From positions 2,723 through 66,722 of the forward strand of contig JACZKW010000047.1 in assembly GCA_014859835.1 (NCBI GenBank): 64,000 bases of DNA. Reading direction: 5' to 3'. Origin of the DNA: Thermoplasmata archaeon. GTDB lineage: Archaea > Thermoplasmatota > Thermoplasmata > UBA10834. Below the pieces are notes generated by a model. That model saw nothing but the letters and a program-made list of their open reading frames with translations. It made no database searches and was not told the DNA's origin. Of the stretch, positions 6,256 to 27,928 are shown piece after piece (the first letter of the stretch is position 1; each line of letters opens with the position of its first letter). A program made the translations under genes and the position numbers.

Positions 6256-6302
6256 GTCAAAAGGCTTAACTACAGAGACAATCTTCCCAACATTCCGTCT
6301 GC

Positions 6303-6406
6303 CACTGTAGCTCAGCGGTTGCGCCTGCGACCATGCAGGTGCCGCTAGAGAGCGGCAGTTTCGTAAACTGCAGGCCGGGGGTTCGAGACCCTCCAGTGGC
6401 TCCATA
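6303..6406 (+). tRNA. tRNA-Thr (anticodon CGU) with ~27-nt intron in the D-loop; CCA encoded
   Basis: Acceptor GCCACTG/CAGTGGC, D-stem GCTC/GAGC interrupted by TTGCGCCTGCGACCATGCAGGTGCCGC, anticodon arm GCAGT-TTCGTAA-ACTGC, T-arm GGGGG-TTCGAGA-CCCTC, discriminator T + CCA. Confidence 0.65.
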
Positions 6407-6461
6407 TCCACCCTCGTTGTCCAAGTGACAACTCTAATATGTCAGCGAGTCAATCGGCTTT

Positions 6462-7373
6462 TTGATGCCGGGCAAATCCGTTGTGTTCATCCCAGATTCC
6501 AAGTGCTCGAACTGCGGCACCTCCATCTCGGACTACTTGCAGGTCCAGGGTGATGGGAAAGCCACGTTCGTCTGCCCCAACTGCGGTAGTCCTGTTATCC
6601 GCGAGATCGTAGCCGGGGTTGCGCCTCCGACCCATCCTGACGAGGTTATCGAACTCGGGGGTGGCCAGACGACCAAGAGCCACTATCCTTGTCTCTACAT
6701 TCAACCCAGACACGCTCCACGATTCGACCTTCGGAACATGGTCCTGACATCGATCCGTCCGACCAAGTCCTTGACGAATCTGTATCTGTCCACCGATCTG
6801 AGACATGCGATCGCGATGGTCCTGGTATTCAGCGTGATCTCCACGATATTCAGTGTACTCATCACGCACGATATGGCTGAAGTGGTCGGTTACACTTCAA
6901 GGGATGCAGTCGGCATCGTCCTACAGGGGGTCGTGGGATGGATCGTCACCCTGTTATCGTTCCTCATATTCGGGGTCGTGGCTGCGCTTCTGTCCCACGA
7001 GATCTTCGGAGGGCGGGGAGACAAAGGATCGACCCTCACCCTGGTCGCTCATTGCTATCCCTGGTTCGTGGTCCTTTCGATAATCCTGCTGTCCCTCTTC
7101 GACTACGGGTTTGTAGGTCTCGACCTCGCGGGCGTCGATAGTTGGGCAGATGATGAGATTCAACAAGCCATGGTGTTCGGCGCGATATTCCTGGTCTTGG
7201 TCCTTGCTGGTTTGGTGTGGATCCTGCGCATCGTGAGCAAGGCGATTGGAGTAGCAAACGACATATCGACGGGTTCCGCAGCTCTGTGCGCCATCCTCGC
7301 AGGCGTCGCTGCAGGAATAATCGCACTCATCGTCGGCTCTTTCATGCGATTGCCGATAGGGATAAATTTCTGA
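6462..7373 (+). CDS. zinc-ribbon + polytopic membrane protein (Yip1-like topology)
   Basis: N-terminal CSNCG...(17 aa)...CPNCG ribbon followed by ~5 hydrophobic helices. Confidence 0.5.
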   Translation: MMPGKSVVFIPDSKCSNCGTSISDYLQVQGDGKATFVCPNCGSPVIREIVAGVAPPTHPDEVIELGGGQTTKSHYPCLYIQPRHAPRFDLRNMVLTSIRPTKSLTNLYLSTDLRHAIAMVLVFSVISTIFSVLITHDMAEVVGYTSRDAVGIVLQGVVGWIVTLLSFLIFGVVAALLSHEIFGGRGDKGSTLTLVAHCYPWFVVLSIILLSLFDYGFVGLDLAGVDSWADDEIQQAMVFGAIFLVLVLAGLVWILRIVSKAIGVANDISTGSAALCAILAGVAAGIIALIVGSFMRLPIGINF

Positions 7374-13570: not shown

Positions 13571-13672
13571 CCCGCGTCTCACTCTTGATAACGACCCGCA
13601 AACCTTTATTAGTAGACAATCTATTGAAATCCGCAGAGGAGTCCGACTCGCTCGAACAGGGAGGGCTGCACT

Positions 13673-14386
13673 TTGTTTAGAGACTCGATACAAGGTCTGG
13701 AAAAGGTTTTCAAGAACGACATCGAGAGGCCCAAAGTCATACTCGTCACCGGCCCTCCAGGATCGATGAAGACGAGCTTCTGCTATTCTCTGATGTCGCA
13801 CTACCTGAGAGATAAGAACGAGTTCGGCCTCTACGCCACTCTCGAAGAGACGGTCGACAGTCACCTGAAGAACATGGAGAGCATGGGCGTGAAGCTCTCC
13901 GCGAAGATGCAGATATCGGATATGACCGACCTCAGGGAGATCGACCAGATCGACGAGGTCATCGGCGATTCGGCACAGACGGATTACGTGCTCTTCATAG
14001 AGAAGATGATACAGCGTTTCAGGAGGACTCATGGAGACAAGTTCTCGATATTCGTCCTCGACTCGCTGGGCGCGCTTTACTCTCTGATGGAGAACGCGGA
14101 GGACATGAGGAAGAAGATGTTCTATTTCTTCAAGATGCTAAGGGACAACAACCTCACATCATTCATAATCATGGAACGGTCGTTGACAGGTGAGTCGCAG
14201 CTTCTCGGAAACGAAGGCTTTCTCGCAGACGGCATCGTGATGCTGGGCCTTGACCGCCAGAGGGGTAAGCTGGTGAGATACCTCCAGGTTGAGAAGATGA
14301 GAGCTGCGGAGCACAGTATGGAGAAGCACGCCATCGAAGTCAACAACTCCGGGATGCAGGTGCTGGGCCCGTTGCTCAGCACTTGA
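13673..14386 (+). CDS. single-domain KaiC/RecA-superfamily ATPase (ArlH/FlaH-like size), degenerate P-loop
   Basis: SIQGLEKVF...VILVTGPPGSMKTSFCYSL, IFVLDSLGALYSL; Walker A reads GPPGSMKT (Gly before Lys replaced by Met). Confidence 0.7.
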   Translation: MFRDSIQGLEKVFKNDIERPKVILVTGPPGSMKTSFCYSLMSHYLRDKNEFGLYATLEETVDSHLKNMESMGVKLSAKMQISDMTDLREIDQIDEVIGDSAQTDYVLFIEKMIQRFRRTHGDKFSIFVLDSLGALYSLMENAEDMRKKMFYFFKMLRDNNLTSFIIMERSLTGESQLLGNEGFLADGIVMLGLDRQRGKLVRYLQVEKMRAAEHSMEKHAIEVNNSGMQVLGPLLST

Positions 14387-14505
14387 CGATGCGACATGGC
14401 CGACGCGGCTCGTGTTGCGTGAAACCCTACGAGTACGCGCCATCCATCCCACTGGGATTTGGCGCGTATCACGAATGACATTGTCAACAAGGAGAGGGAT
14501 CGGCG

Positions 14506-15513
14506 ATGACAGAAGACCAGAGCATTTCGCAGATAATCGAAGACGCGGTCAAGAGCCTTAGGACCCAGGAAGCCGAGGTCCGCAAGAAGGACCAGGACGT
14601 TCAGACCCAGAAGTCCGAACTTCAGAAGATGAAGGCAGAACTGGAGTCCAGCGAGCAGAGGCTCCGTGAGAATGAAGATTCCTTGAGGGAGAAAGAATCG
14701 TCCCTCGAGATCAAGGTTGCGGAGATCACAGCCCGTGAGGAGTCCGTCCAGACTAGCGTAGCTCAGGTGGATGCGAAGAAGGCCGAGATCCTGAAACTCG
14801 AGGAACAATCGAAGGTTGCACTCGCGAGCGCGGAGGCGAGGGAGCTGGAAGCCGTGACCTCGTTATCGGAATCGTCGCGCGCCCAGGCCGAGGCGACGCA
14901 AAAACGCAAGGCCCTCCTCGATCGGGAAGATCAGATGAAGAAGTCCGAGGAGGAACTCCAGAGACTTATGGAACAAGTGGCATCGAGGCGTGATGCGCTA
15001 ATATCGCGTGAGCGTTCCCTGGCAGCAGAGGAGGAATCCATCCGGAATGATCGCGAGAGACTCTCGGAAGATGCCAGAAAACTCCTCAGTAGGCAGACCG
15101 AAGTGATTGAGAACGCCTCTATGGAGCAGGCCGATGCCATGGAAACGGCCAAGCCCGATCTTGGCGACGATGAGACCGAATGTCCACGGTGCAGGACCGT
15201 CATAAGCAAGGATGCCATAATGTGCTATTCATGCGGCCACCAGCTGAGGGATGTCGAGCCAGAGGAGATGTCTGAGGCGCCATCTGACCAAGAGGCCGAT
15301 GCCGAATCATCCGAGGAGGATGAGGTGTCCTGTCCGAAGTGTAAGACGCTGGTCAGCAAGAGTGCGATAATGTGCTACGCCTGCGGCTCCGATCTGAGGG
15401 GGGCACAACCCGCGGCGGATGGAGAAGGGAGTCGCGACGAGGCGAAGGTCCCCGAGGAACAGAAGAAACCGCAGGTCTTTGTCAAGAAGATCGTCAAGAA
15501 AAAGGTTGCTTAG
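14506..15513 (+). CDS. coiled-coil protein with C-terminal tandem zinc ribbons (DZR)
   Basis: ~220 aa heptad-rich E/K/R/Q sequence then CPRCRTVISKDAIMCYSCG and CPKCKTLVSKSAIMCYACG. Confidence 0.6.
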   Translation: MTEDQSISQIIEDAVKSLRTQEAEVRKKDQDVQTQKSELQKMKAELESSEQRLRENEDSLREKESSLEIKVAEITAREESVQTSVAQVDAKKAEILKLEEQSKVALASAEARELEAVTSLSESSRAQAEATQKRKALLDREDQMKKSEEELQRLMEQVASRRDALISRERSLAAEEESIRNDRERLSEDARKLLSRQTEVIENASMEQADAMETAKPDLGDDETECPRCRTVISKDAIMCYSCGHQLRDVEPEEMSEAPSDQEADAESSEEDEVSCPKCKTLVSKSAIMCYACGSDLRGAQPAADGEGSRDEAKVPEEQKKPQVFVKKIVKKKVA

Positions 15514-15554
15514 CCAGCATCTGCTCAAACCCTTCTTTGTCATGAAAATGTGGC

Positions 15555-15572
15555 AAATAGCTTTTTATATAG
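15555..15572 (+). promoter_or_regulatory. archaeal TATA box/BRE-like element upstream of the adhesin gene
   Basis: aaatagcTTTTTATATAgcc ~45 bp upstream of ATG 15612. Confidence 0.45.
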
Positions 15573-15611
15573 CCGAACTGCTTACTTTGATTCGCAATAC
15601 CCAGCATCTGG

Positions 15612-18600
15612 GTGGGTGAACTTATGGAACACAGAGCTGGCCCTCTTCAGGCCAACAGATCTCTGAGCGCATTGATTGTCGCCACATTCGTGCTGTCGGC
15701 GTTCGCCGGGCTATTCGTGATGTCGAATCCTGCGCCTACCGCTGCACAGACACCAATCGGTGACCTGATTGTAACCGCCGGCACATACACAGTCGAGAAT
15801 GTGAACCAACCTGTAGATGGTGATGTTCTCGTCAGTGGTGGGGAGCTGATAATACGGAACGCTGCTTTGCTGGTGATCAGCAACGTGGGTGTTCAGCGAA
15901 CGGTGACGATTGAAACCGGCGGAACCATGATTCTTGAGCGTGGCACTCTCACCACCTATCTGAACCAGATCGATCCATGGCCGTTCCTGATTGTAGACAT
16001 CGATGGAGGGACTCTCATAGCCTCGGAGAGGTCGCTATTGAGTTTCCCCGGCACAATCACCGTACAGAACGGTGGCGAGCTCATACTATATGACAGCACC
16101 ATCGAGCCGCTACCCGCAGGTGATATATCCCTGTACATTTCCGGGTCCCCTACAGTCGTCATTGACGCCGCGGATGATGGGCCAGCGATCTCAGTCATTG
16201 ACGGTTCAATAATGATGTTCGACTCCGAGATCACGAGTCTTCCGGAATATCCTTCGCTAGGTCTTGTCGCCAGCAATCTCACGCTGAGTGGAGAATCTAC
16301 TCTGCTGGCAGTCAACAGCTACATCAGTGTTGACTTCGGACCTAACGTCAGCGCATCTGATTGGTCCACCCATAATATGCTGGTCTTGTCGGATTCTTCA
16401 AAAGCCCATCTTTACGGAACATATTTCGATGAGTATTCTGGTAGCTATTCCGCAAGATCATCTGCCATCCTTGCTGACGGCGAAAGCTACATTGCATTGC
16501 CTGCTTCCTCTGGACCAGAAGATACTACGACGGGACAGTCTTACACTGATCTTGTGGCCAGCAATGAAGGTTCAACATATCACGTCGCTCCTGGGGATGT
16601 AATGGCCATCGACACTTTTAGTGCAGGTCCTCCTGCGACAGTTGATGAAGCAACACTATACGTGAGATATCTCGTAGACGCGGGATATAACGGTGCGAGA
16701 TCATTTACATGGCGCCTTGAAGGAGGAACTGCTGCATCGACTGGAATCACTCCCTTGCCATCTGAGACTTCCTTCGTAGAGAAGAGCTTCGATTTGCGTG
16801 ATGCGGGAGTAACCACCACTGGCGACCTCGCTGATTTGGACATCAACTTCATACACGATGGATCGACAGGCGATGTCCAAGTGGACAGCATGTCCATTGT
16901 AATCTCTTTGGGGCCAGAAGCCTACATATATAGATGGATCAACCTGACTGTCGGCGATGAATACGGCGTGCCGATTCCTGACTGTGACATTTCATCGACA
17001 TTTACGGGGTCTTTGACGTTCTCTGATCAGCCATCATTCTACTTCGGGCTGGGTGAGGGGAGTTCATCTGTTCCACCACAAGTTGTACTTGACTACATGG
17101 ATGAGACTGCTGAATCATTTGGTGTCACAGGCCCACTTGGTGCCGCGACCATACCACTACTGACTGATTTGGTGTCTGGTGGCCAATCTCCCAACTCTCT
17201 GTTTGTCGGAAGTTACAGTATTACTGGAACCGTCATACAGGATGCAGTGGAGCATGCATCAAACGAAACCTTCTCATTCCCTGCATACCCTGCGATGTCG
17301 ATTACAGATCAGCAATTCGATATGACGGTCGATGTCCAAGGCATATCTGCCGAGAGTCCTGACCCATCCAAGTGGTTGGTTGTTCCGCCAAACCTAACGA
17401 TTGAAAACATGAGCTACTATCACGCGGGTGATGTCATAGTGGCGTCTGATGGGAATCTCACATTGAGGAATGCGATATTTGAGTTGGTCCAATCAACTGC
17501 GAATGAGAGAACCGTCTATGTCGATGGAACCGCCAACTTCGTGATCGAGGACTCTCAGGTGAACAGCGCACTCGCGATTGATATCATAGTGAAGGGTCAT
17601 GGGACGCTCGAAGTCAACAGATCAGTTCTGAACGGCGTGAACATAGTGGCGATGGACGACGCACTTGTGATTCTCAGAGATACTGACTTCGATGGTACGA
17701 TAACCACTTCATGGGACTCATCGGCCAGAATCGTGGTCGTCGATTCCGTACTTGCTCAGGCACCAGTACTATCTGGCAACGCATTAGGAGAGTTTACGAA
17801 TTCGAGTGTTCCATCAATCGTGGTAACGGAAGACGCAAGAGCATTGATATACAGATGGATTCACGTGACCGTTCTGGATGGTGGCGACAACCCCCTGCCA
17901 GGAGCGTCTGTCTCGGCATGGTTCTTTGTGAACAGTACATACTGGTCGAGTGCACCCAGCGACGAATCGGGAATAGCACAGATCAAATCCCTTGGGACAA
18001 TACTGACATCCGACGGCTCGACGTTCATCGGCAATTACAAGATCAACTCGACGTACATGAGCGACGGAGACCTGCATTTCTCTGATCAGACGATATCCAT
18101 AGGTGTGATGCCGTATACCGAGCCCCTGACTGAAAACGCAACATACGCCGTGTTGAGAATGTCCACCGTCGTACTTCCCGATCTTAGCGTGAGGCCCGGT
18201 TATATTTGGACCGAGCCAACGGATGTCGTGTACAACTCTACATGTACGATCTTCGCCCTAATCGAAAACACCGGAGATAAGGTCGCGGAAGATGTCATGG
18301 TTGAGTTCTTGATAGGGGAGGATATCGAGACGGCAACTCTTCTGAATTCGACCGTGATTTCAACGATAAATCCGGACAGTCAGGTGACTGCTGATGTAGG
18401 ATGGATACCCGACAGTATCGGGACATTCACGGTATGGGTCCGGGTCAACGGTGGGCTCGACGGAACACCGGATTTCAATGAGCTTTCATTCATTGACAAC
18501 CAGGAATGGGTCTACATCCGAGTATTGGACTATGCTGACCTCTCGTTAAATGCGATTGAATTCCTGGCCGGCGACCCGTCGGTCATCGTGTCAAGCGTAC

Positions 18601-20414
18601 CTGGTGGACAGACCGTGTATGTTCGCTCAGTGCTGTACAACGACGGTGAGGCTCCTGTCTTGAACCCTGTAGTATCATTGACTGTGAACTATAGCGACTC
18701 AGAGACCGAGTTTTTCAATCAGACACTGTATGGTGTTCTTTATGAGGGCTCTCAATTCGCGGTTGAGTTCGTGTATTCCGCACCATTTGTGATGAACAAC
18801 ACTGTTTTCACTTTCACCATGGACGCGAACCGCTATGGGGCAGTGACGGAGACGGACCTGACAAACAACGTAGTGACGGATACGCTCACCGTCCTTGATA
18901 TCCGCGAGGACTTCAAAGTCGGCGTAGATGACATCTCTGTGGACGACGGCTCGAATGCTCATGAATTCGGGAGACTGATCACGATCACGGCCAACATCTA
19001 CAACCTGGGTGGGACAGACCCCGGAAGTGTGAGCATCAGATTCAACCTCACATTCGGGTCTCTGGAGTATGAGATCGGCATAAGGGCGACAAACATACCT
19101 TGGGGTATGATGACGCCTGTCTTCATGCCGTATATGATAAACCAGACGATTGGTGGAACATATTCCATATCCGTATACGTCGACTATGATGACAACTATT
19201 CGAATGAGAAGAACGAGGAGAACAACGAAGCAGCGATTGATTTCGAAATCGTCGATCTCGTGTATCACATCTCCATGACTACGAACGCCGACACGGGCGA
19301 GTATAAGGCGGGCGACAACGCCTTCGTGACCTTGTATGTCTTCTATGGCGCGACTGCGCCGGATGTTGGTAGCGAAGAAGCGGTATCTGGACTGCCAGGC
19401 GTTTCCGTGAACCTCGTGAGCCCCGATAGCATAGTCCTCGTGCGCGCCGATCCGATTTCGACATCCGCTACAGGCCAAGCATCATTCACAGTGGTGCTCC
19501 TGACAAGTCTAGAGACTGGTCAGTACACGCTGGTCCCAGTGATTCTTGAAGACGAGCAGCCTAGCTTCTCGCTTACGATAAGCATAGATGGCGAAGTCTC
19601 TGGACGTGGCATCGCGTTGTGGGTCTGGCTCGTAATAATCGGCGTGATCGTCGGATCCGTCCTCGGTGTCACTGCTTATATCTATTTCAGAGGTCTCGGC
19701 AAACTGGTCGAGTGTGGAGAATGCGGCGCATTCATCCCGGCTGGGAACAAGAGATGCCCGAAGTGTGGAGTTGAGTTCGAAGTCGGCACGATGAAATGCT
19801 CTGAGTGCGGAGCATGGGTGCCTGCGGAATCGACCGAGTGCCCCAACTGCGGCGTGAAGTTCGTCGGCGAGGAGATTGGCGAGGAGGATTACCTCGAGAA
19901 GATGAGGCGCGAGTACGATGAGATGGTCTCGAAGTACCGTGAGTTGGCAAAGCCCGAACTCGGCAAGAAGTTTAGCGACAAGAAGTTCGAAGAGTGGTGG
20001 GCAACCCAGCCGACATATATCTCATTCGATGATTGGCTCGCAAAGGAAGAGGAGAAGCGGAAGGAGGGGCCGGTACCATGCCCTGTCTGTGGCACGATGA
20101 ACCCGAAGGAATCGACTGTATGTCACAAGTGTGGCACGGTCTTCGGAGTCGAGACGGAAGTGCCTCCCGGAAAGCAGCCTCCCACCCCACCGTCCTCAGG
20201 CGAGGCGTTGCCAGAATCGTCTGGAGTCGAGCCTGCCCTGTCAGGCGAGAAAGCTTCAGAACAACCGCGCCCTCCCCAGGCTGCAGCACCGAAGATGGTC
20301 ATCAGAAGGCCCATCGACCGAAAGGTGGTCCCGAAGAAGATCATCAAGACTCCTATAGCCAGGGATTCGAATAACGAAGGCAACGGATCCTACAACGACG
20401 AGGATCAGCAGTAG
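15612..20414 (+). CDS. giant cell-surface adhesin-like protein (N-terminal signal/anchor, beta-rich repeats incl. CARDB-like modules, C-terminal TM, cytoplasmic triple zinc-ribbon + Pro-rich tail)
   Basis: N-terminal hydrophobic LSALIVATFVLSAFAGLFV; CARDB-like VRPGYIWTEPTDVVYNSTCTIFALIENTGDKVAEDV; TM GIALWVWLVIIGVIVGSVLGVTAYIYF; then CGECGAF..CPKCG, CSECGAW..CPNCG, CPVCGT..CHKCG. Confidence 0.8.
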   Translation: MGELMEHRAGPLQANRSLSALIVATFVLSAFAGLFVMSNPAPTAAQTPIGDLIVTAGTYTVENVNQPVDGDVLVSGGELIIRNAALLVISNVGVQRTVTIETGGTMILERGTLTTYLNQIDPWPFLIVDIDGGTLIASERSLLSFPGTITVQNGGELILYDSTIEPLPAGDISLYISGSPTVVIDAADDGPAISVIDGSIMMFDSEITSLPEYPSLGLVASNLTLSGESTLLAVNSYISVDFGPNVSASDWSTHNMLVLSDSSKAHLYGTYFDEYSGSYSARSSAILADGESYIALPASSGPEDTTTGQSYTDLVASNEGSTYHVAPGDVMAIDTFSAGPPATVDEATLYVRYLVDAGYNGARSFTWRLEGGTAASTGITPLPSETSFVEKSFDLRDAGVTTTGDLADLDINFIHDGSTGDVQVDSMSIVISLGPEAYIYRWINLTVGDEYGVPIPDCDISSTFTGSLTFSDQPSFYFGLGEGSSSVPPQVVLDYMDETAESFGVTGPLGAATIPLLTDLVSGGQSPNSLFVGSYSITGTVIQDAVEHASNETFSFPAYPAMSITDQQFDMTVDVQGISAESPDPSKWLVVPPNLTIENMSYYHAGDVIVASDGNLTLRNAIFELVQSTANERTVYVDGTANFVIEDSQVNSALAIDIIVKGHGTLEVNRSVLNGVNIVAMDDALVILRDTDFDGTITTSWDSSARIVVVDSVLAQAPVLSGNALGEFTNSSVPSIVVTEDARALIYRWIHVTVLDGGDNPLPGASVSAWFFVNSTYWSSAPSDESGIAQIKSLGTILTSDGSTFIGNYKINSTYMSDGDLHFSDQTISIGVMPYTEPLTENATYAVLRMSTVVLPDLSVRPGYIWTEPTDVVYNSTCTIFALIENTGDKVAEDVMVEFLIGEDIETATLLNSTVISTINPDSQVTADVGWIPDSIGTFTVWVRVNGGLDGTPDFNELSFIDNQEWVYIRVLDYADLSLNAIEFLAGDPSVIVSSVPGGQTVYVRSVLYNDGEAPVLNPVVSLTVNYSDSETEFFNQTLYGVLYEGSQFAVEFVYSAPFVMNNTVFTFTMDANRYGAVTETDLTNNVVTDTLTVLDIREDFKVGVDDISVDDGSNAHEFGRLITITANIYNLGGTDPGSVSIRFNLTFGSLEYEIGIRATNIPWGMMTPVFMPYMINQTIGGTYSISVYVDYDDNYSNEKNEENNEAAIDFEIVDLVYHISMTTNADTGEYKAGDNAFVTLYVFYGATAPDVGSEEAVSGLPGVSVNLVSPDSIVLVRADPISTSATGQASFTVVLLTSLETGQYTLVPVILEDEQPSFSLTISIDGEVSGRGIALWVWLVIIGVIVGSVLGVTAYIYFRGLGKLVECGECGAFIPAGNKRCPKCGVEFEVGTMKCSECGAWVPAESTECPNCGVKFVGEEIGEEDYLEKMRREYDEMVSKYRELAKPELGKKFSDKKFEEWWATQPTYISFDDWLAKEEEKRKEGPVPCPVCGTMNPKESTVCHKCGTVFGVETEVPPGKQPPTPPSSGEALPESSGVEPALSGEKASEQPRPPQAAAPKMVIRRPIDRKVVPKKIIKTPIARDSNNEGNGSYNDEDQQ

Positions 20415-20449
20415 GTTGCTGCCATCCTCAAAACTCACAAACCCTTTGA

Positions 20450-20519
20450 CGGTTTTTCATTTCTCATGTTTCAATGCCATTAATGCGTATTGTATCGAGC
20501 CGCGGCTCATTGCAATACA
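20450..20519. terminator. bidirectional terminator-like element between convergent genes: T5 run plus palindrome TGTATCGAGCCGCGGCTCATTGCAATACA
   Basis: perfect 12-bp core palindrome GAGCCGCGGCTC flanked by TGTAT/ATACA; sits between stop of 15612..20414 (+) and stop of 20550..22304 (-). Confidence 0.4.
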
Positions 20520-20549
20520 TGATGTCTATCGAGAACGGGATTATCGAAA

Positions 20550-22304
20550 TCAGGTTCGCTGAGGAGGTCCGGTCTCTGCCAGTTTCGCCCGGACCTCTTT
20601 CATCACCTTGTCAGGATCCTTGTAATATGCAGATATGATGGTGGCAACCTTCCTGTGATTGTCGATGCTCATCTTCTTCATGTACTCGAGGATGTCGACA
20701 CGCCTCTTGATCTCCCTTTCCATCTCGCGAGGTGCCCAGTTTCTGGCCATTCTGACCTTCTCGTACACGTAGCTGTGACCGCTGTAGTTGAAAGTGTCAT
20801 CTGCTGGATTCCACGTGTAGACGGAGTTTGTGATCAGCTCATCGGTCTCGGGGTCGATGCCGACGATCTCCGTCAGTGACTTGACTCGTCTGGTCATCTT
20901 GGTCCCGACCTTGACCTGAGCCTGCAATAGCACGATATTGAGGGCGGTTATCAATGCCCTGGGCAGGTTGATGGGGTCGTTCTCCATCCTGTGAACCATC
21001 GCCTGGACATCCTCTGCATGGAAAGTGGAATAGCAGGTCTTGCCAGTTGCCATGGCCTGGAACACGACATACGCTTCCTTGCCTCTGACCTCACCGACCA
21101 TCAGATACTGAGGCCTCTGTCTCATGGCTGCCGTGAGCAAGTCGAACATGTCTATCTCACCGGAAGATCTTCCAGTGATCATGCTCTTCCCGCCGAAGCC
21201 TTCTCGGGTCAGACCCGGGACCCAGTTCTCATGTGGTAGGTTGAGCTCCCTGGTGTCCTCGATGGAGACGATCTTCATCTGCGGGGGGATGAAAAGGAGA
21301 ACGGCGTTCAAGGTCGTGGTCTTTCCACTCGCGGTACCTCCACACACGAGCATCGACTCTCCATGCTCGATGCCTATCCAGAGGTATGCCATCATCTCCG
21401 TGCTCATCGTCTTGAATTTGAGTAGGTCGAGCGGGGTGAAAGGATTCTCCTTGAACCGTCTGATTGTGAATGACGAACCCCTCTTCGTGACATGCTTCCC
21501 GAGGGTCGCCTGCAATCTGGAGCCGTCCGGGATCGTAGCGTCCAGAAGTGGGCTCGCAACCGAGATGTGCTTGCCGCACTTCTGGGCAAGCCATACAACG
21601 AAACCATCGAGTTCCACCTCCTTCTCGAACCTGAGATTGGACCTTATTGAGCCGTATTTCCTGTGATAGATGTACAGCGGGACGTCGACTCCATCGCACG
21701 AGCAGTCCTCTACATTGGGTTCGGCCATCATCACGTCGATGACGCCGTAGCCGAGGAAATCCCTGAGGAGATAGTACATCACCCTCTCCTTGGATACTGG
21801 ATGCAACGAGATGCCCAGCTGGTCCATGAGCTCCTCGATGATCCGTCTGAGGTACTTCTCCTTCTCGGAAGGTTCCTCCTCGGTCATCTTCTCGACAGAT
21901 GCGATGAGGGTCTCTTTCAGCAGAGCGAGCACAGCTGCCTCGTCCCCCAGCAGCTTAGGCTCGATCACCTCGTATGTGTACTCGTTGGCCTTGTTGTCGT
22001 ACCTTATCCTGACATATGAATAATTCTGTTTGACCGGGATCATCTCGACCTCGTCGATATTCGACTCGGTCAGCTTTGGTATCTCCGTGATCTGGCTGAT
22101 GTCGACCTTCACCTCGTTCTTGGTGATCGCGATCATCGCAGGTCTGGGCTTTATCTTCATAAGGAAACCGTAGTACGCTGCGAAAAAGCCTCCGCTCTTC
22201 GCCTTCTCCTCCTCTGGTGGGGGAGTCTCATCTGCTTCAGGCGCGTTTGGCTGCGGTTCTTCCGTTTCTATCTTGGCCTGCTCGGTTTCAGACATCTCAA
22301 TCAC
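20550..22304 (-). CDS. FlaI/TadA/VirB11-family secretion-pilus ATPase (paralogue B)
   Basis: LVCGGTASGKTTTLNAVLLFIPP Walker A, Asp/His boxes, FlaI-like N-domain; no archaellum accessory genes nearby. Confidence 0.85.
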   Translation of the reverse strand: MIEMSETEQAKIETEEPQPNAPEADETPPPEEEKAKSGGFFAAYYGFLMKIKPRPAMIAITKNEVKVDISQITEIPKLTESNIDEVEMIPVKQNYSYVRIRYDNKANEYTYEVIEPKLLGDEAAVLALLKETLIASVEKMTEEEPSEKEKYLRRIIEELMDQLGISLHPVSKERVMYYLLRDFLGYGVIDVMMAEPNVEDCSCDGVDVPLYIYHRKYGSIRSNLRFEKEVELDGFVVWLAQKCGKHISVASPLLDATIPDGSRLQATLGKHVTKRGSSFTIRRFKENPFTPLDLLKFKTMSTEMMAYLWIGIEHGESMLVCGGTASGKTTTLNAVLLFIPPQMKIVSIEDTRELNLPHENWVPGLTREGFGGKSMITGRSSGEIDMFDLLTAAMRQRPQYLMVGEVRGKEAYVVFQAMATGKTCYSTFHAEDVQAMVHRMENDPINLPRALITALNIVLLQAQVKVGTKMTRRVKSLTEIVGIDPETDELITNSVYTWNPADDTFNYSGHSYVYEKVRMARNWAPREMEREIKRRVDILEYMKKMSIDNHRKVATIISAYYKDPDKVMKEVRAKLAETGPPQRT

Positions 22305-23284
22305 GCAAACAGTATTCTGAGGGAAACAAATCCTGCGACCAACATGATGAAGCTGTGCCTCATCCCTATGGGTATGCTCCCCTTCTGGATGACACCAGCT
22401 AGCAGCCCATCCCCAACCGCATGCACCACTATCGCAAGTAGGAATATGAATGAGATATCGTCGATGAGGGCGACCTTGATGTTGACTCCCGGAATCTCCT
22501 GTAATCCCATATCCTGAGCCGCATCGTTCACCGTCGTTCCCGCCTCCTCCATCTTAGGGAGGAACTGCAGGTCGAGGATCAATATTGTCGCAATGAACAC
22601 GAAGAATGAAATGTAGACGACCATCACATAGGTCGACATGGTCACGTTCCTCTCCTCCTGTGTGAGGATGGATTCCTTGGCATCATGGGACACCATAGTG
22701 AGGACATCGGCGACGTTGCCACCCGCGTCGTTGGCCTTCCTGATTATCGATGTCATTCTTACGACCAGAGGTGTCTTGACCCTTTCCGAGAACAATCTGA
22801 TGGCCTCAGATGCGGGCACACCCCATTCTATCTGCGCAGCCATCTTCTTGATTTCCGGAGTCAATCGGCCATATCTGCCGGACGATGCGATGACGATCGA
22901 GTCCGCCAAAGTCATGCCGAACCTTCCGGCCTCCGCCACATCTCTGAGGAAATCGGGTAGTCTGGTCTCGATCTCCCTGATATGCTTCTCCTTCGCCGAT
23001 GTGTAGAATCCGTAGGGGGCAAGGAATGCCAATATCCCAAAGATGACGTAATCGATCGGTTCGAACGGGAGCGAAAGGCTGCCTATCCCATCTATGATCG
23101 CCAAGAACACGCATATGCCCACAGCGGCGAACGAACCTGCTAGGATGGTTCTAGTCTTATCGGACTTCTCAGTGGCAAGGATCTTCTTGATCGCCCTCTC
23201 CTGTTCTGCCTGACTGAGCTTCTTCGTTGCCATCCTACATCGCCCCTTCCTGTGACATGTTCCAAATGACAAATATGAATCCAA
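22301..23284 (-). CDS. FlaJ/TadC-like platform membrane protein (half-size, part B)
   Basis: 327 aa, polytopic, T2SSF-like cytoplasmic domain; overlaps neighbours by 4 and 50 bp. Confidence 0.65.
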   Translation of the reverse strand: MDSYLSFGTCHRKGRCRMATKKLSQAEQERAIKKILATEKSDKTRTILAGSFAAVGICVFLAIIDGIGSLSLPFEPIDYVIFGILAFLAPYGFYTSAKEKHIREIETRLPDFLRDVAEAGRFGMTLADSIVIASSGRYGRLTPEIKKMAAQIEWGVPASEAIRLFSERVKTPLVVRMTSIIRKANDAGGNVADVLTMVSHDAKESILTQEERNVTMSTYVMVVYISFFVFIATILILDLQFLPKMEEAGTTVNDAAQDMGLQEIPGVNIKVALIDDISFIFLLAIVVHAVGDGLLAGVIQKGSIPIGMRHSFIMLVAGFVSLRILFA

Positions 23285-24278
23285 ACTGCGAGATCGGGAT
23301 CATCCCCAGGACGATCAGGTACAGGAGCGTGACCATCATGTCGGAGTCACCTCCACCGACGATTGCCATGATCGCCATGATGAGAACAAGGAATAGGGGG
23401 AAAGCAACGACGACAGTGACGAAGGATTCGGCGAGCATGCCAAGTGTCTCCATCTGGGACTTCATGGCGAGCTTGTTCTCCTTCTGGTATTCATCCGCCT
23501 TGAGCAGGAAGTACGGCTTGAGTTGCCCACCTGATGTGGAAGTGGTGACGACACCCTGCAAGAACTCCTGGAACTTGGCCGAGGGTGACCTCTTCGAAGC
23601 CTTCTTGATGGCGGTCAGGATATCCGATCCCAGTAGTTCCGTGTCACGCGTGATCCACGAGGACTCCTCCGAGATCTCACCGTAGACCTTCTGCCTCGAG
23701 AGTTCCTTGAATATGACATCTATGTTGACATCCGCCGACGCCATGGCAGAGATGAAGCCCATCGCAGCCGCGATCCTCTTGTCGATATCCCTGCCCCTGG
23801 ACTTGGCCTTGGAGGCCGGTGATCCCATGAGCATCATGAACGCCATCATGGGTAACAGACCAATCGCTATGCCTGATATCATGATCCTAACCATTATCGA
23901 TACGCCGAGCACCCCGAAGAGGATGATGCCGACGACCACTGCTATGACCACTCCTATGGCGAATGCGATGATAGTGCTCATGAGTACATAGGCATAGTAT
24001 TCTTCGACCCGTATCCTCATATGGGCCTTGTTGAGTGATTCCTCAAGGGCCTGGTTGTTGGCGCTGGTCATCTTATCGCTCGCGAACTTGCCCATTATGC
24101 GCCAGGACAAATCCTGAAACTTGGTCAGGCTGACGTAGTCGGGGACGGCGCCCTTGGTCAATCGGACTCCATGAGGTCCGATGTCCTCCCCTCTCTGGGT
24201 CAGCTTCGTCTTGAGGTACTCTCCCTTCTTGGTCTCGACCCTCTCGAAGACATCGGAGACTTCAGGCAGAGTCGACAC
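23235..24278 (-). CDS. FlaJ/TadB-like platform membrane protein (half-size, part A)
   Basis: 347 aa, polytopic, T2SSF-like; 17-bp overlap with upstream ATPase. Confidence 0.65.
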   Translation of the reverse strand: MSTLPEVSDVFERVETKKGEYLKTKLTQRGEDIGPHGVRLTKGAVPDYVSLTKFQDLSWRIMGKFASDKMTSANNQALEESLNKAHMRIRVEEYYAYVLMSTIIAFAIGVVIAVVVGIILFGVLGVSIMVRIMISGIAIGLLPMMAFMMLMGSPASKAKSRGRDIDKRIAAAMGFISAMASADVNIDVIFKELSRQKVYGEISEESSWITRDTELLGSDILTAIKKASKRSPSAKFQEFLQGVVTTSTSGGQLKPYFLLKADEYQKENKLAMKSQMETLGMLAESFVTVVVAFPLFLVLIMAIMAIVGGGDSDMMVTLLYLIVLGMIPISQFGFIFVIWNMSQEGAM

Positions 24279-26022
24279 CTCCTGTCGGCATCTTCAAACC
24301 GCTCTGGGAGGCTGCCGGGTACATTTCCTTTCGAGCCATTTCCGCCACTCCCTTCGGGTCCTTGTAATATGATTTGATGATGTTCCAGATGTCCACATGG
24401 TCAGACATGTCCTTCGATACCATGTATTTCACGATATCCACACGGCGCTCGAATTCCTCCAGCAGTTCCTCGTGTGTCAGGTTCTTCATTTCCATGATCT
24501 TGTCAAACAGGAAACTGTGGCCCTTGAAGATGAACTTGTCCGTGGCCTGATCCCATTCGTAGACCGTGTTGCTGATGAGCTCGTTCGTTTCGGGTTCGAA
24601 ACCGACGATTTCGATGAGCTGCTTGATTCTCCTGACCATGTCCATTCCTACTCTTGCATGTGTCTGGATGATGACATTCCTGAGGGCAGTGAGCAGAATT
24701 CTGGGACAATTGATCGGTGGGTTCTCAAGCCTGTTGACCATGCCCTTGACAGAATCCGCGTGCATGGTCGAGAAGGTCGTGTGACCGGTCGCCATCGCTT
24801 GGAACATGGTGTAGGTCTCCTTTCCTCTCACCTCTCCGACGATGATATAGTTCGGCCTCTGTCTCAACGCGGCCCTGACGAGGTCGTACATATCTATCTC
24901 ACCCGCGGCCTTTCCGTCCGGCCCTCGCTCACCTGAGCCAGATCTTGTCGTGGCGGGAATCCAGTTCTCATGAGGTAGGTTGATCTCTCTTGTATCCTCC
25001 ATGGTGACGATTTTGGCACCAGGGGGTATGAATAGTGACATGGCGTTGAGCGTCGCCGTCTTTCCACTAGCCGTGCCTCCGGCTATGATGGCCGACTCTC
25101 CATGCTCCACACCGAGCCACAGATACGCGACTATCTCTGGTGATGCCGTGCCGTACTTGATCAGTTCGACCGGCGTGAACGGTTTCTCCTTGAATCGTCT
25201 GATTGTGAACGAGGCACCCCTCGTGGTCACTTCTCTCGCATAGGTCGCCTGGACTCTGTGCCCTTCCGGCGTAGTACCGTCTAGTATGGGGTTCGAGACG
25301 GAGAGCTGCTTCCCACATCTCTGGCCAAGCGATATGACGAACGAGTTGAGGTCATCCTCATCCTCGAACACGACATTGGTCTTGATGGATTCGAACTTGC
25401 TATGGAACAGGAACAGTGGGATGCCTACGCCATCGCAGGATACGTCTTCGACATGAGTGTCGCTAATCATTGCATCTATGGGACCATATCCGACGAAATC
25501 CCTCGTGATGAAGTACTTCACCTTGTCTTCCGAGATCGGTTCGAGTCTGATACCCCTCGACTTGATGTAGCTGTCCACGCTCCTCTCCAGGTAGGTCTTC
25601 TTGTTCATGTGGTCGAGCTTCGCCCACTCGTAATCGAGGATCATCTCGAAGGTGGCCTTGATCTTCTTCAACAACGCATCTTCGTCTTCGGTCAGCACCG
25701 GCTCGATCACGCTCATTATGTAATCGCTAGTGGCTGCGTTGTAAGTAACCCTCACATAGCTGAACGGATCAACCACTGGATAGAATGCCATCTCCTGGAT
25801 ATCAGGATCCGTTATGGGGGGGATCTCGGTGTACGGTGACCCCTTCCCGTCCTTCCACTGCTTCCTCCTAGCAGCTGCACCCTTCGCGGATTTGATTTTG
25901 ATGGGTTCGGATTTGAGCCTGCTCACAGCGTTGATGTATCCATGCCAGATGCGAGCGCCTATTGGCTGCTTAGGGACTTTAACGGGTATGTCATATTCAA
26001 TTTTCGCATCTGCCTCAGACAA
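24262..26022 (-). CDS. FlaI/TadA/VirB11-family secretion-pilus ATPase (paralogue A)
   Basis: IIAGGTASGKTATLNAMSLFIPP Walker A, GEVRGKE, His box; clearly paralogous to 20550..22304. Confidence 0.85.
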   Translation of the reverse strand: MSEADAKIEYDIPVKVPKQPIGARIWHGYINAVSRLKSEPIKIKSAKGAAARRKQWKDGKGSPYTEIPPITDPDIQEMAFYPVVDPFSYVRVTYNAATSDYIMSVIEPVLTEDEDALLKKIKATFEMILDYEWAKLDHMNKKTYLERSVDSYIKSRGIRLEPISEDKVKYFITRDFVGYGPIDAMISDTHVEDVSCDGVGIPLFLFHSKFESIKTNVVFEDEDDLNSFVISLGQRCGKQLSVSNPILDGTTPEGHRVQATYAREVTTRGASFTIRRFKEKPFTPVELIKYGTASPEIVAYLWLGVEHGESAIIAGGTASGKTATLNAMSLFIPPGAKIVTMEDTREINLPHENWIPATTRSGSGERGPDGKAAGEIDMYDLVRAALRQRPNYIIVGEVRGKETYTMFQAMATGHTTFSTMHADSVKGMVNRLENPPINCPRILLTALRNVIIQTHARVGMDMVRRIKQLIEIVGFEPETNELISNTVYEWDQATDKFIFKGHSFLFDKIMEMKNLTHEELLEEFERRVDIVKYMVSKDMSDHVDIWNIIKSYYKDPKGVAEMARKEMYPAASQSGLKMPTGGVDSA

Positions 26023-26032
26023 AAGCTCACCT

Positions 26033-27223
26033 CTAAGGGGCCACCTCGCCCAGTGTTACCAGGATCGTCGCGTGCGTGTGGTCCAAAACGTTCACATCCT
26101 TGATCGTGACTGTCAATGTGTAGTAATCGTTCTGGGTGCCTTCCGAATCATGTAGCGTGAGAGGTCCTATTGAGAAGTCAGTATCGTATGTCAAGCCCGC
26201 CATCGAGTTGTTGAGCGCCTTGTTGAAATAGGTCAGCCAAGCGTTTCCGTGCTTGCTCACTATCGTGAACGTGAGGTCAGCTCCCACATCGCTTTCGTAT
26301 ACATTGGTGTTGGCATAGAGGAGATCAACGTATATCCCCTTCGTGCCAGTCCCACCCACGGTCTTGTCCAGGCCTAGCATCGAGACCTGTGTAAGCTTGA
26401 CAACTCGGCTCGTGTCAACCCCTGCAACGATATTCGTGACCGAGAACTGAAGCCCCGCTATGATATATTCTCCATCTGACTGGTTGAGTATCAGGGCACC
26501 GCAATCATAGGTCAGGTGCTGCTCGACATAATACCTGTTAGGTGCATAGAAGTCGATGTATCCGCCAGCGTGTCCGTCATCGCTTGTGCTCAATGTCTGC
26601 TCGTCGCCTACGAATGTCGCATTGAACGATGGATACCCGGTGGTGGATTGAGAACCGAACTGTAATATTCCAGCTGTCGGTGCAGCGAATATCGGTATGC
26701 CCTGGGCATGTAAAGTTATCGGGACGAAAACGGGAGTAGGGGCCAGAAGGCTGTTCGAATAATCCGCGACCAGCCCGTCGACCTGGGACTTGAGGTAGAT
26801 CATCTGCTGGACAACTGTCGCCATATGCGCGCTCTCGTTATCGCTCATCCAGACAGGGACGAACTGGTTGGTGAACATGCCCATGAACGTAAGGAACACA
26901 AGCAGCGACATGATGGTGCCGATTGTAGAGGCAACCCCCTCATCATCGTTCCATCTCGGCGATCGCTTAATACGGCCAATAACGGAGTTTCCAGAATAGC
27001 TATTTCGAATTTCTGACAAGTCCATCCTACCACCGAAGGGGGGTTTCTGAAGCAACCTAATCAGCGTCTGAAGCATATTTAAAGTCTTCGTTTCTGGTAT
27101 CGTCTGGAATACACCTTTTTTTGCCACCCCAGATCGATCGGATTCGCCTGGTCGTATGGACCATCGATGTTGATCAATCTCGTCCGACCCCCTCATCGAT
27201 ACCGTCGATTTCAGTTCTTGCAC
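26033..27223 (-). CDS. signal-anchored extracellular beta-rich protein, first gene of the pilus-like operon (pilin-like/pilus-associated candidate)
   Basis: single N-proximal hydrophobic segment VASTIGTIMSLLVFLTFMGMF preceded by charged RIKRSPRWNDDEG, then Thr/Ser/Asn-rich beta-type sequence; GTG start at 27223 (in-frame ATG at 27196); 10-bp gap to ATPase A. Confidence 0.4.
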   Translation of the reverse strand: MQELKSTVSMRGSDEIDQHRWSIRPGESDRSGVAKKGVFQTIPETKTLNMLQTLIRLLQKPPFGGRMDLSEIRNSYSGNSVIGRIKRSPRWNDDEGVASTIGTIMSLLVFLTFMGMFTNQFVPVWMSDNESAHMATVVQQMIYLKSQVDGLVADYSNSLLAPTPVFVPITLHAQGIPIFAAPTAGILQFGSQSTTGYPSFNATFVGDEQTLSTSDDGHAGGYIDFYAPNRYYVEQHLTYDCGALILNQSDGEYIIAGLQFSVTNIVAGVDTSRVVKLTQVSMLGLDKTVGGTGTKGIYVDLLYANTNVYESDVGADLTFTIVSKHGNAWLTYFNKALNNSMAGLTYDTDFSIGPLTLHDSEGTQNDYYTLTVTIKDVNVLDHTHATILVTLGEVAP

Positions 27224-27245
27224 TCCGCATGATGCGAATCACCGA

Positions 27246-27258
27246 AGATTTAATACCG
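27246..27258 (-). promoter_or_regulatory. TATA-like element (GGTATTAAATC on minus strand) ~25 nt upstream of pilus-operon start
   Basis: AT-rich box between tRNA-Phe and start of 26033..27223. Confidence 0.3.
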
Positions 27259-27289
27259 AGTTCCGCCTAACTGCCCTTCCCAGCATCGA

Positions 27290-27365
27290 GCCGTGGTAAC
27301 TCAGTTGGGAGAGTGCAAGACTGAAGATCTTGAAGTCGCTGGTTCGAGTCCGGCCCACGGCACCA
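27290..27365 (+). tRNA. tRNA-Phe (GAA), CCA encoded
   Basis: GCCGTGG-TA-ACTC..GAGT-G-CAAGA-CTGAAGA-TCTTG-AAGTC-GCTGG-TTCGAGT-CCGGC-CCACGGC-A-CCA. Confidence 0.9.
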
Positions 27366-27475
27366 TTCCCTTGTCCAGGGTGGTCGAGGTGTTGCCCCTC
27401 GATCTGCAACCCTTTATTGGAATAGATTCATGTCCTTGGTACGTCCTATACGCGACAGGACGGAGGAGAACAAGA

Positions 27476-27913
27476 ATGCCGATCAAATCATTCGAACTAG
27501 TGTCGCTCGATGCGAAGAGATTCACGAAATTGGGGGAACGGGTTCCTCAGCTCAGGGTCGATCACAATACTTCAGTGACGAGCATATCGGCGATGTCCGA
27601 GAAGGATGCCATGGTGGAATTCACATTCACCGTCAGCTATGTCGGCGTCGGGATAATCAAGATCGAAGGTAAAGTCGTATGGGACGGGGAAGCCCAAACA
27701 ATCGCGTCCCAATGGGCCAACAAGAAGGAGCTCCCTCAGACTGTATTCAACCCTATCCTGAACGCGATCTTCGCGAACTGCATGCCCGCAACCGTCACCG
27801 TGGCGCGGGACATAGGCCTGCCACCGCCGTTGCCGCCTCCGCAAGTCGCGATGAAGCGGAACGCCAAGATGCCGGGCGGGAAGGACCATAAATCGTCGAT
27901 GGAAGTGGCCTGA
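27476..27913 (+). CDS. hypothetical protein (145 aa, Pro-rich C-terminus)
   Basis: ORF-track start 27293 overlaps tRNA-Phe; in-frame ATG at 27476 has GGAGG 10 nt upstream. Confidence 0.45.
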   Translation: MPIKSFELVSLDAKRFTKLGERVPQLRVDHNTSVTSISAMSEKDAMVEFTFTVSYVGVGIIKIEGKVVWDGEAQTIASQWANKKELPQTVFNPILNAIFANCMPATVTVARDIGLPPPLPPPQVAMKRNAKMPGGKDHKSSMEVA

Positions 27914-27928
27914 TAGGCCTACGTTCTC

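Follow-up and report, generated by a model that had tools for sequence, protein, structure and literature searches.

Why should a giant archaeal surface protein end in a tail of zinc ribbons on the cytoplasmic side, and why should its gene lie between those of a KaiC-like protein and a coiled-coil protein on one side and those of a type IV pilus-like machine on the other? The question is raised by a stretch of 64,000 nucleotides (nt) from a Thermoplasmata archaeon (GTDB lineage UBA10834; GenBank assembly GCA_014859835.1, contig JACZKW010000047.1, positions 2,723 to 66,722), which is called the window here and in whose numbering all coordinates are given. A first-pass annotation had pointed to three co-directional genes, and the three open reading frames (ORFs) are as it described them: 13673-14386, 14506-15513 and 15612-20414, all on the + strand. 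They encode a single-domain, KaiC-like RecA-fold NTPase of 237 amino acids (aa), a protein of 335 aa with a coiled coil and two zinc ribbons, and a giant protein of 1600 aa that reads as a type I membrane protein. This trio is the left arm of a conserved Thermoplasmata locus of about 16.6 kb (13673-30310), in which a type IV pilus-like machine is accompanied by accessory proteins of the KaiC family and by others with zinc ribbons. The locus belongs to a known kind, the KaiC-type accessory modules at archaeal type IV pilus loci. As the best explanation we propose that the trio serves a euryarchaeal type IV pilus or surface locus as an accessory or regulatory module of the KaiC-hub type, possibly with a transmembrane link, and we give this proposal about an even chance of being correct.

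A conserved locus with a pilus-like arm

One genome per GTDB species was scanned, a relative of the KaiC-like protein was found in 293 genomes, and 80 loci were analysed; for each feature, only those loci with enough flank are counted below. The coiled-coil/ribbon gene follows the KaiC-like gene in 66 of 67 loci by tblastn (67/67 with the blastp ORF list), and the ribbon tail of the giant protein lies downstream of this pair in 30 of 34. The co-occurrence of the three genes in relatives, on which the first-pass annotation had made its proposal depend, was therefore found. A convergent PilB3-like ATPase (T2SSE) is present in 25 of 31 loci, clade 2 included. Clade 2 is a second group of loci (KaiC-like identity 68-74%), in which the gyrB-gyrA synteny seen upstream of the trio in the window is lost. 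It nevertheless keeps the trio and the pilus genes, and it does so even though an MFS-like gene is inserted between them. No more than 34 of 63 loci have retained gyrA on the upstream side; the link between trio and pilus genes thus outlasts the loss of the other flank. In one further locus (L068) the slot after the pair holds a protein of 2558 aa with Pilin_N (33 bits) and CARDB domains and without a ribbon tail, that is, a type IV pilus substrate.

The right arm, on the - strand and convergent with the trio, contains the type IV pilus-like core (20550-26022), recognized by Pfam (T2SSE, PilB3_C, T2SSF), NCBIfam models and synteny. In the order T2SSE/T2SSF/T2SSF/T2SSE, it comprises a first PilB3-like ATPase (20550-22304), the C-terminal half (22301-23284) and the N-terminal half (23235-24278) of a TadC/ArlJ protein, both of which match Pfam and ArlJ models, and a second ATPase (24262-26022). 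The two FlaI/PilB3-like ATPases, about 50% identical to each other, flank this split TadC/ArlJ gene and, together with a pilin-like protein, constitute the pilus-like machine of the locus. The convergent pilus operon noticed in the first-pass annotation is thus real, and it is kept where the other flank changes. A pilus ATPase carries PilB3 N- and C-terminal domains, and the PilB3_N/PilB3_C matches, together with the two tadC-like genes, point to Makarova's clade 2, since the main text of that survey describes clade 2 pilus systems as often having two tadC genes (Makarova, Koonin & Albers 2016, PMC4858521). In our clade 2 loci, the first pilus ATPase has an N-terminal coiled-coil extension.

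The gene next to the core (26033-27223, -) encodes a product that is probably pilin-like: its internal DDEGVASTIGTIMSLLVFLTF / DDEGVASTIGTIMSLLVF segment resembles an archaeal prepilin N-terminus, and the true start is for this reason probably internal. The copy in the window has no Pfam match; its orthologue in locus L088 has a weak DUF7289 match. The arm ends with a protein of 793 aa (27929-30310, -; DUF7504), in which an N-terminal zinc ribbon, an HhH domain, a coiled coil of about 400 aa and a KaiC-like domain are fused; the last of these is degenerate, as it reads GPPFTGKE and has no clear Walker B Asp. A single chain here combines domain types that are divided between two proteins in the KaiC-like/coiled-coil pair. 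Proteins of this family, about 800 aa long and 57-97% identical, are conserved in many Thermoplasmata, and occupy the same position in loci L087 and L088, both of which keep the right arm in full. A recent fusion of the pair can be rejected as its origin, for the KaiC-type domains encoded at 13673 and 27929 are only about 21% identical.

The KaiC-like NTPase

The KaiC-like gene (13673-14386, +) starts with TTG, preceded by GGGAGGG at 13659-13665, and has a TATA-like box, TTTATTAG, at 13604-13611 (+). The box is conserved in relatives, and among those of clade 1 a CAAA-n2-TTTA[TA]TAG block and a GGAGG before the gene are conserved. Pfam PF06745 (KaiC) covers aa 6-231 of the product with 117.4 bits (cut-off 26.6), and the AlphaFold2 (AF2) model, with a predicted local distance difference test score (pLDDT) of 89.4, shows a RecA-like fold.

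The first-pass annotation had described this ATPase as P-loop-degenerate. Its reading of the Walker A motif, GPPGSMKT (aa 27-34; nt 13751-13774), is correct, and the canonical pattern GxxxxGK[ST] is not matched, with the Lys and the Thr/Ser retained. To speak of degeneration would overstate the case, as the Met or Leu in place of the second Gly is a conserved subfamily signature. Homologues with 70-100% identity number about 800, all of them from Thermoplasmata. GPPGSMKT is found exactly in 101 of the 120 closest, and 18 of the remaining 19 have Met or Val at the same P-loop position and keep Lys-Thr/Ser; in sum, 118 have Met and one has Val for the second Gly, so that 119 of 120 carry the variant. 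An exhaustive search of 1.84 billion protein cluster representatives extends this picture: in nearly all of the roughly 100 nearest single-domain relatives the second Gly is replaced by M, L, F, V or I, and the canonical GxxGxGK[ST] is largely limited to lower-scoring proteins, mostly KaiCs with two or three domains. Outside the P-loop, the Walker B motif FVLDS (aa 127-131) supplies the Asp, and the Glu pair in LEET (aa 57-60) the catalytic Glu. In 61 diverse relatives five residues, G27, K33, D130, S131 and K208, do not vary, and E58 is at least 90% conserved. A decaying, dead ATPase was rejected in view of the conservation of the variant P-loop and of these invariant key residues. With K33, D130 and S131 invariant and E58 nearly invariant, the protein looks like a functional variant rather than a pseudo-enzyme. 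Because the P-loop Lys, the Walker B Asp and the Glu pair are kept, nucleotide binding is likely, and the exchange of Gly for Met probably alters the kinetics. The large single-domain KaiC-like subfamily with a hydrophobic P-loop residue has apparently gone undescribed, and it matters for the 'KaiC hub' hypothesis in Archaea.

Among more remote relatives, one large set of single-domain proteins of about 230 aa (P0207-P0356) carries GxxGx[M/L/F/V/I]K[ST], and many of its members are without the Glu-Glu pair. Genes next to remote relatives include those for PadR, for sigma-70-like and REC-DUF835 proteins, for Pilin_N proteins (next to P0217) and for TSP3 proteins; as these relatives (40-63% identity) are mostly found on contigs of 2-4 kb, their context is mixed and weakly informative.

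The closest known structures belong to the KaiC superfamily at large. Foldseek ranks the CI domain of KaiC (5yz8, 4tl7) and PH0186 first (E 5e-17 to 1e-16; template-modelling (TM) scores 0.76-0.85), and phmmer against the PDB matches KaiC, PH0186, PH0284 and SSO2452 (E 1e-12 to 1e-23). PH0186 (2ZTS), PH0284 (2DR3), SSO2452 (2W0M) and KaiC CI are the best matches in sequence and fold (TM 0.72-0.85), with identities of only 20-26%, and the aligned KaiC sequences have the canonical Gly (GTGKT, GCGKT) where the protein in the window has Met. KaiC CI acts in the circadian clock. A bona fide circadian KaiC is ruled out: the protein has a single domain, scores only 90 bits with the two-domain KaiC model PRK09302 (cut-off 408), and no KaiB-like gene was seen among the neighbours of its gene.

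The coiled-coil/double-ribbon protein

The second gene (14506-15513, +) is probably co-transcribed with the KaiC-like gene, because no TATA-like element was found upstream of it. The coiled coil proposed for its product is confirmed by composition: aa 1-205 (14506-15120) contain neither Pro nor Gly, consist to 78% of E, K, R, Q, L, A and S, and show the hydrophobic heptad periodicity of 3.5/7 residues. The double ribbon is confirmed likewise, by eight Cys in four CxxC pairs, which form two CxxC-x10-CxxC ribbons (15181-15234 and 15331-15384, both +) separated by an acidic linker; both Pfam matches, Zn_ribbon_3 (53.6 bits) and DZR (39.5 bits), are above cut-off. The chain ends in KKPQVFVKKIVKKKVA, which includes the basic motif VFVKKIVKK (15475-15501, +), and this ending is conserved in all 70 of the 70 homologues recovered: in clade 1 it reads ...KKPQ[IV]FVKKIVKKK.., and in clade 2 related basic endings such as ...VSVKKVLKKKVI occur.

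The giant surface protein

The third gene (15612-20414, +), identified by its ORF, Pfam matches and composition, has a promoter of its own. The TATA box TTTATATA is situated exactly where the first-pass annotation had placed it, at 15564-15571 (+), and is conserved in 12 relatives, as are its flanks, AAATAG...GAACTGCTTACTT. In the same 12 relatives an inverted repeat, CCCAG-CAT-CTGGG (15600-15612, +), abuts the annotated GTG start codon; its stem is kept, and its loop varies from 3 to 7 nt, which makes it a possible translational control element. The gene may instead start at the ATG at 15624, which is preceded by GGTGA at 15615-15619.

Topology was read from composition and Kyte-Doolittle hydropathy. 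The protein contains only two hydrophobic segments, an N-terminal signal or anchor (aa 16-40) and a transmembrane helix (aa 1336-1359; 19617-19688, +), which has a Kyte-Doolittle peak of 2.55, appears as a helix at residues 7-31 of the AF2 model of the tail, and is followed by R-G-L-G-K. The 1290 residues between the two segments are acidic, with 0.8% Lys and 2 Cys, and contain 20 N-x-S/T sequons, compared with 12 +/- 2.9 in shuffled sequences. The last 240 residues, in contrast, are rich in K, R and E (14% K+R), and include 12 Cys in six CxxC pairs, i.e. three ribbons, as well as a Pro-rich stretch. This contrast in composition, together with the R-G-L-G-K right after the helix, supports a type I topology, with the ectodomain outside the cell and the ribbon tail in the cytoplasm. 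The first-pass annotation had staked its proposal on a cytoplasmic tail, and the composition agrees with it.

Pfam and composition likewise agree with the earlier description of a CARDB-containing ectodomain and a tail of three ribbons and a Pro-rich segment. The N-terminal 700 aa are without a Pfam match and read as beta-helix-like repeats, after which CARDB (56-59 bits over two stretches, placed outside the cytoplasm by composition) and Ig-like domains come. Given these repeats, the CARDB domains and the hypervariability described below, the label of adhesin is plausible. At the N-terminus, [KR]-[SAT]-L-[ST]-x-L-[IV]-V is conserved before the hydrophobic core in homologues of the giant, and an AxA-like site comes after the core. 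A search of aa 1-700 gave no Pilin_N match at E<=0.1, and a regex scan for a class III signal peptide was also empty. The N-terminal motif (15657-15731 and homologues) is reminiscent of a prepilin cleavage site.

The tail begins with a double ribbon that directly abuts the membrane (YGLGKLVECGECG). Its conserved core (19713-20132, +), defined by Pfam, the alignment of tails of homologous giant proteins (A3) and AF2, consists of this double ribbon (aa 1368-1413), an aromatic three-helix unit (aa 1424-1484) and a third ribbon (aa 1490-1507); the corresponding Pfam matches are DZR (36.1 bits, aa 1368-1414) and Zn_Ribbon_1 (32.9 bits, aa 1490-1509). A3 contains 39 invariant columns, all 12 Cys among them, and its aromatic-rich segment is highly conserved. 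The AF2 model shows the transmembrane helix, two ribbons, the three-helix unit (pLDDT 94-96), the third ribbon and a disordered end. As a whole, the model had no significant match among PDB structures in Foldseek; single ribbons weakly resemble RanBP2-type fingers, L40e and the ArnA ribbon (E about 1). When the tail was used as query in a protein search, the matches, all from Thermoplasmata, were mostly fragments on short contigs and revealed no new architectures.

Tail and ectodomain differ sharply in their conservation, with identities to relatives of 44-97% and 25-50%, respectively. The contrast is most apparent in a locus nearly identical to that of the window (L001, JAHIRF010000005.1), in which the KaiC-like protein is 100%, gyrA 98%, T2SSE 99% and the giant tail 99-100% identical, whereas blocks of 100 aa in the ectodomain (15612-19616) fall to 39-48%, especially at aa 300-500 (about 16512-17111). 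It resembles the outcome of cassette exchange, or of strong diversifying selection, in a surface protein. The hypervariable ectodomain suggests a strong diversifying pressure, by attachment, viruses or both, in uncultured soil and sediment Thermoplasmata. No part of the giant is under tighter constraint than the tail, as would be expected of a cytoplasmic docking function.

A basic motif common to two proteins

After its Pro-rich linker the giant ends in tandem basic repeats, PKMVIRRPIDRKVVPKKIIKTP (20289-20354, +), of which relatives have two to four; in A3 they read VIRRP...VVPKK[IV][IV]K.P. A six-frame scan of the 64-kb window finds the pattern V-x-KK-[IV]-[IV]-K, which is part of these repeats, exactly twice, in the C-terminal ending of the coiled-coil protein (15475-15501) and in the tail of the giant (20325-20351). 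Each copy is preceded by a zinc ribbon with a low-complexity linker, and the two clades have kept both copies. With ribbon, linker and ending in common, the coiled-coil protein and the giant tail would dock on a common cytoplasmic partner or compete for it; the shared motif is the strongest internal hint that they address the same one. It shows where to look for an interaction, and the basic peptides PQVFVKKIVKKKVA and RKVVPKKIIKTP are candidates for the binding segments.

Comparison with known systems

According to the main text of the survey by Makarova and co-workers (PMC4858521), KaiC-family ATPases, coiled-coil proteins, zinc-ribbon proteins, and adhesin-like and S-layer-like proteins recur at archaeal type IV pilus loci. 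The locus studied here resembles them in having a single-domain KaiC-type ATPase beside VirB11/FlaI-like ATPases and two TadC-like genes, as well as a large secreted adhesin- or S-layer-like protein, a cytoplasmic coiled-coil protein and zinc-ribbon proteins, and the adjacency to genes of the VirB11/FlaI-family ATPase and TadC/ArlJ type is conserved. Unlike the loci as described there, it also has two ATPases. Four features are not described in that main text: the invariant pairing of the KaiC-like with the coiled-coil/double-ribbon protein, the ribbon tail of the giant, the basic motif common to two proteins and the exchange of Gly for Met or Leu in the P-loop. Measured against this source, the pairing of a P-loop-variant KaiC-like protein with its partner, the presence of a conserved cytoplasmic tail with three ribbons on a giant, hypervariable surface protein, and the shared basic motif appear to be new.

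The coiled-coil/double-ribbon protein has its analogues in the flagellar assembly factor HP0958/FlgZ and in the coiled-coil arCOG07564 of halobacterial pilus loci, in which, as the same main text has it, a cytoplasmic coiled coil is likewise followed by a zinc ribbon and the protein is linked to a filament (PMC4858521). The likeness is one of architecture, and the protein in the window differs by its two ribbons and its conserved basic C-terminal motif. One tail ribbon of the giant superposes on the ArnA ribbon of the ArnAB complex, part of the archaellum regulatory network of Sulfolobus (8s05_C; 26 residues, root-mean-square deviation 1.1 A, 31% identity), a non-significant match (E about 1.2) to a generic small fold. 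The ArnA ribbon is a protein-binding module in a motility regulator; unlike ArnA, the giant tail is without an FHA domain, and the locus without an ArnB-like vWA partner.

For the KaiC-like protein two archaeal comparisons offer themselves. The first-pass annotation had likened it to ArlH/FlaH, and as to its size, about 230 aa with a single KaiC-like RecA domain, its general fold and its position near a FlaI-type ATPase and an ArlJ-type membrane protein, the likeness stands; orthology does not. The NCBIfam models of ArlH (NF052589, cut-off 215) and FlaH (PRK06067, cut-off 194) score only 26 and 28 bits, compared with 77-90 bits for KaiC-type models, and an ArlH structure is found neither among the phmmer matches in the PDB nor among the top 50 of Foldseek. 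In further contrast to ArlH/FlaH, the gene is convergent to the FlaI-like genes, outside an arl operon and without archaellins, and the P-loop is the variant one. ArlH is a nucleotide-dependent modulator of ArlI (PMC8978795), and a role of the KaiC-like protein as modulator is proposed by analogy with it. The second comparison is with CirA, a KaiC-like protein encoded in opposite orientation within the arl cluster of Haloferax volcanii, where genetic evidence shows that it represses motility genes (PMC10983859). The KaiC-like gene shares with cirA its place beside type IV-filament machinery genes and its opposite orientation to them. The comparison is one at the superfamily level: CirA has a canonical Walker A motif, in which a Gly mutation (G33E) is disruptive, and has neither a coiled-coil/ribbon partner nor a ribbon-tailed surface protein.

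Proposed mechanism and alternative explanations

Gene content, domain anatomy, topology by composition, conservation pattern, synteny and the shared motif are what we observed, and the following mechanism is suggested by them. The KaiC-like NTPase would serve as a nucleotide-dependent switch or hub, working as an obligate pair with the coiled-coil/double-ribbon protein. The giant would be a variable, glycosylated surface protein, either an adhesin or a matrix- or stator-like anchor, whose conserved tail, with its three zinc ribbons and helical unit, would be positioned just inside the membrane. There, the tail and the coiled-coil protein would either dock on one common cytoplasmic partner or compete for it, the most economical candidates being the KaiC-like oligomer and the pilus ATPases. 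By this means the state of the surface protein could be coupled to the assembly or activity of the pilus, or the reverse. Several observations speak for such an accessory module of a pilus. They include the synteny of trio and pilus genes, the pilin-type giant with Pilin_N and CARDB in the slot after the pair in L068, the Pilin_N gene next to the remote relative P0217, the conservation of the tail, the motif common to two proteins, the occurrence of a fusion of zinc ribbon, coiled coil and KaiC-like domain (the 793-aa protein) within the pilus arm, the retained catalytic residues of the KaiC-like protein, and the published precedents of pilus loci and CirA. The locus offers a clean case, with an invariant pair and a giant whose only strongly constrained part is cytoplasmic.

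Several points weigh against this explanation. No interaction between the parts was demonstrated here, and we infer every physical interaction, every direction of signalling and the nucleotide binding in the model, including the coupling itself. The trio and the pilus genes are convergent and not co-transcribed, 6 of 31 loci have no pilus operon within 10 kb, and the gene after the pair in L059 is that for AlaRS. Clade 1 is syntenic well beyond the locus (HdrA-like, DUF531, AIRS, FtsJ and Lhr genes are also kept), which means that much of the co-occurrence count is owed to shared descent, and that clade 2 and L068 have to supply the independent evidence. The P-loop variant also occurs in remote relatives whose genes have unrelated neighbours, among them PadR, and sigma-70-like plus REC-DUF835 genes. 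On the giant in the window no class III signal peptide was detected. Finally, the Gly-to-Met exchange could abolish nucleotide binding, and membrane lipids or nucleic acid could be the actual ligands of the basic motif.

The alternative that survives best, possible although we hold it to be rather unlikely, is a cell-envelope module that is independent of the pilus. The giant would be the major surface protein, a substitute for glycocalyx or S-layer, of a wall-less cell, and its tail, the coiled-coil protein and the KaiC-like NTPase would form a sub-membrane scaffold that anchors or organises it, the adjacency to the pilus genes being inherited order. Thermoplasmatales are indeed without an S-layer and carry a disordered glycoprotein layer (PMC12448462). 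The pair and the giant each have their own promoter, both are convergent to the pilus genes, and they share no common operon with them; the extended synteny of clade 1 shows a generally conservative gene order; the conservation of the KaiC-like protein, at 70-100% identity over about 800 proteins, is at a housekeeping level; and L059, L062, L075 and L077 keep the pair with no pilus genes close by. The basic amphipathic C-terminus FVKKIVKKKV could, moreover, be a membrane-targeting sequence. Against this alternative, the pilus operon of clade 2 stays adjacent despite a replaced upstream flank and an inserted transporter gene, a pilin-type giant takes the slot in L068, and the fusion protein is encoded inside the pilus arm.

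Alternatively, the KaiC-like protein might be a general hub that regulates gene expression in the manner of CirA, with the coiled-coil ribbon protein as its partner, an explanation we consider unlikely. In that case the ribbons and basic motifs would have nucleic acid or transcription factors as ligands, the genes of the giant and of the pilus would be regulated targets or mere neighbours, and the giant tail would be no more than a membrane-proximal sensor output. Archaeal KaiC-like ATPases have been proposed as hubs of signal transduction in statements that cite Makarova 2017 (PMC8978795, PMC5847659), CirA controls arl transcription (PMC10983859), and HP0958, with its coiled coil and zinc ribbon, acts on flagellar gene expression in Helicobacter, as cited in the main text of PMC4858521. 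Three KaiC-type proteins are clustered here, including a DnaA-like protein with DUF835 and the HhH-containing fusion, and remote relatives adjoin PadR, sigma-70-like and REC-DUF835 genes. The pair, however, is without a DNA-binding domain, the same motif on a membrane-tethered tail is awkward for nucleic-acid binding, and the ribbons resemble, if weakly (E about 1), the protein-binding ribbons of the RanBP2, L40e and ArnA type. The strict pairing with a huge surface protein would be left unexplained.

That the 237-aa protein is an ArlH orthologue and the locus a divergent archaellum is highly improbable: the ArlH-like size of the single RecA-like domain (about 230 aa), the FlaI matches of the neighbouring ATPases and the ArlJ matches of the membrane proteins agree with it, but orthology is contradicted by the model scores and fold ranking given above, both FlaI matches (430 and 412 bits) are under the cut-off of 550, a pilus ATPase has the PilB3 domains at both ends, and no archaellin, ArlF/G or ArlC/D/E/X was detected among the proteins of the locus.

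A bolder suggestion, tentative and rather doubtful, is that the ribbon tail may be a transmembrane coupling device, by which the giant is wired to the KaiC-type switch and through it to the pilus ATPases. The wiring would consist of the three ribbons, the helical unit and the basic V-x-KK-[IV]-[IV]-K repeats, and the soluble coiled-coil protein with the same motif would be a competitor or a scaffold. Such a device would be an archaeal counterpart of integrin-like inside-out and outside-in signalling or, alternatively, of a stator that anchors a filament machine where the cell has no S-layer, and the P-loop with Met or Leu for Gly would define a new functional class of KaiC-like switches.

Neighbouring genes

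The conserved neighbourhood is rich in KaiC-type and zinc-ribbon proteins, and degenerate KaiC-type proteins recur in it. Besides the 793-aa fusion, a second is encoded at 4027-6411 (-) and combines a DnaA-like AAA+ domain of bacterial type (PF00308, 172 bits) with DUF835, a domain regarded as an inactivated KaiC domain (PMC5847659). Its gene is convergent with a conserved gene for a multi-zinc-ribbon and helical protein (2302-4011, +), and in clade 2 this conserved convergent pair immediately precedes the KaiC-like gene.

Between the pilin-like gene and that of the 793-aa protein, a small conserved gene is situated on the opposite strand (27293-27913, +); its homologues in relatives are 144-146 aa long, and family searches gave no match for it. 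A defence system was considered and rejected, since PADLOC returned only marginal P-loop and coiled-coil matches (16-20 bits) for the proteins of the trio. Another membrane protein with ribbons on the cytoplasmic side is encoded nearby, at 6462-7373 (+): it has a Yip1 domain and N-terminal zinc-ribbon motifs.

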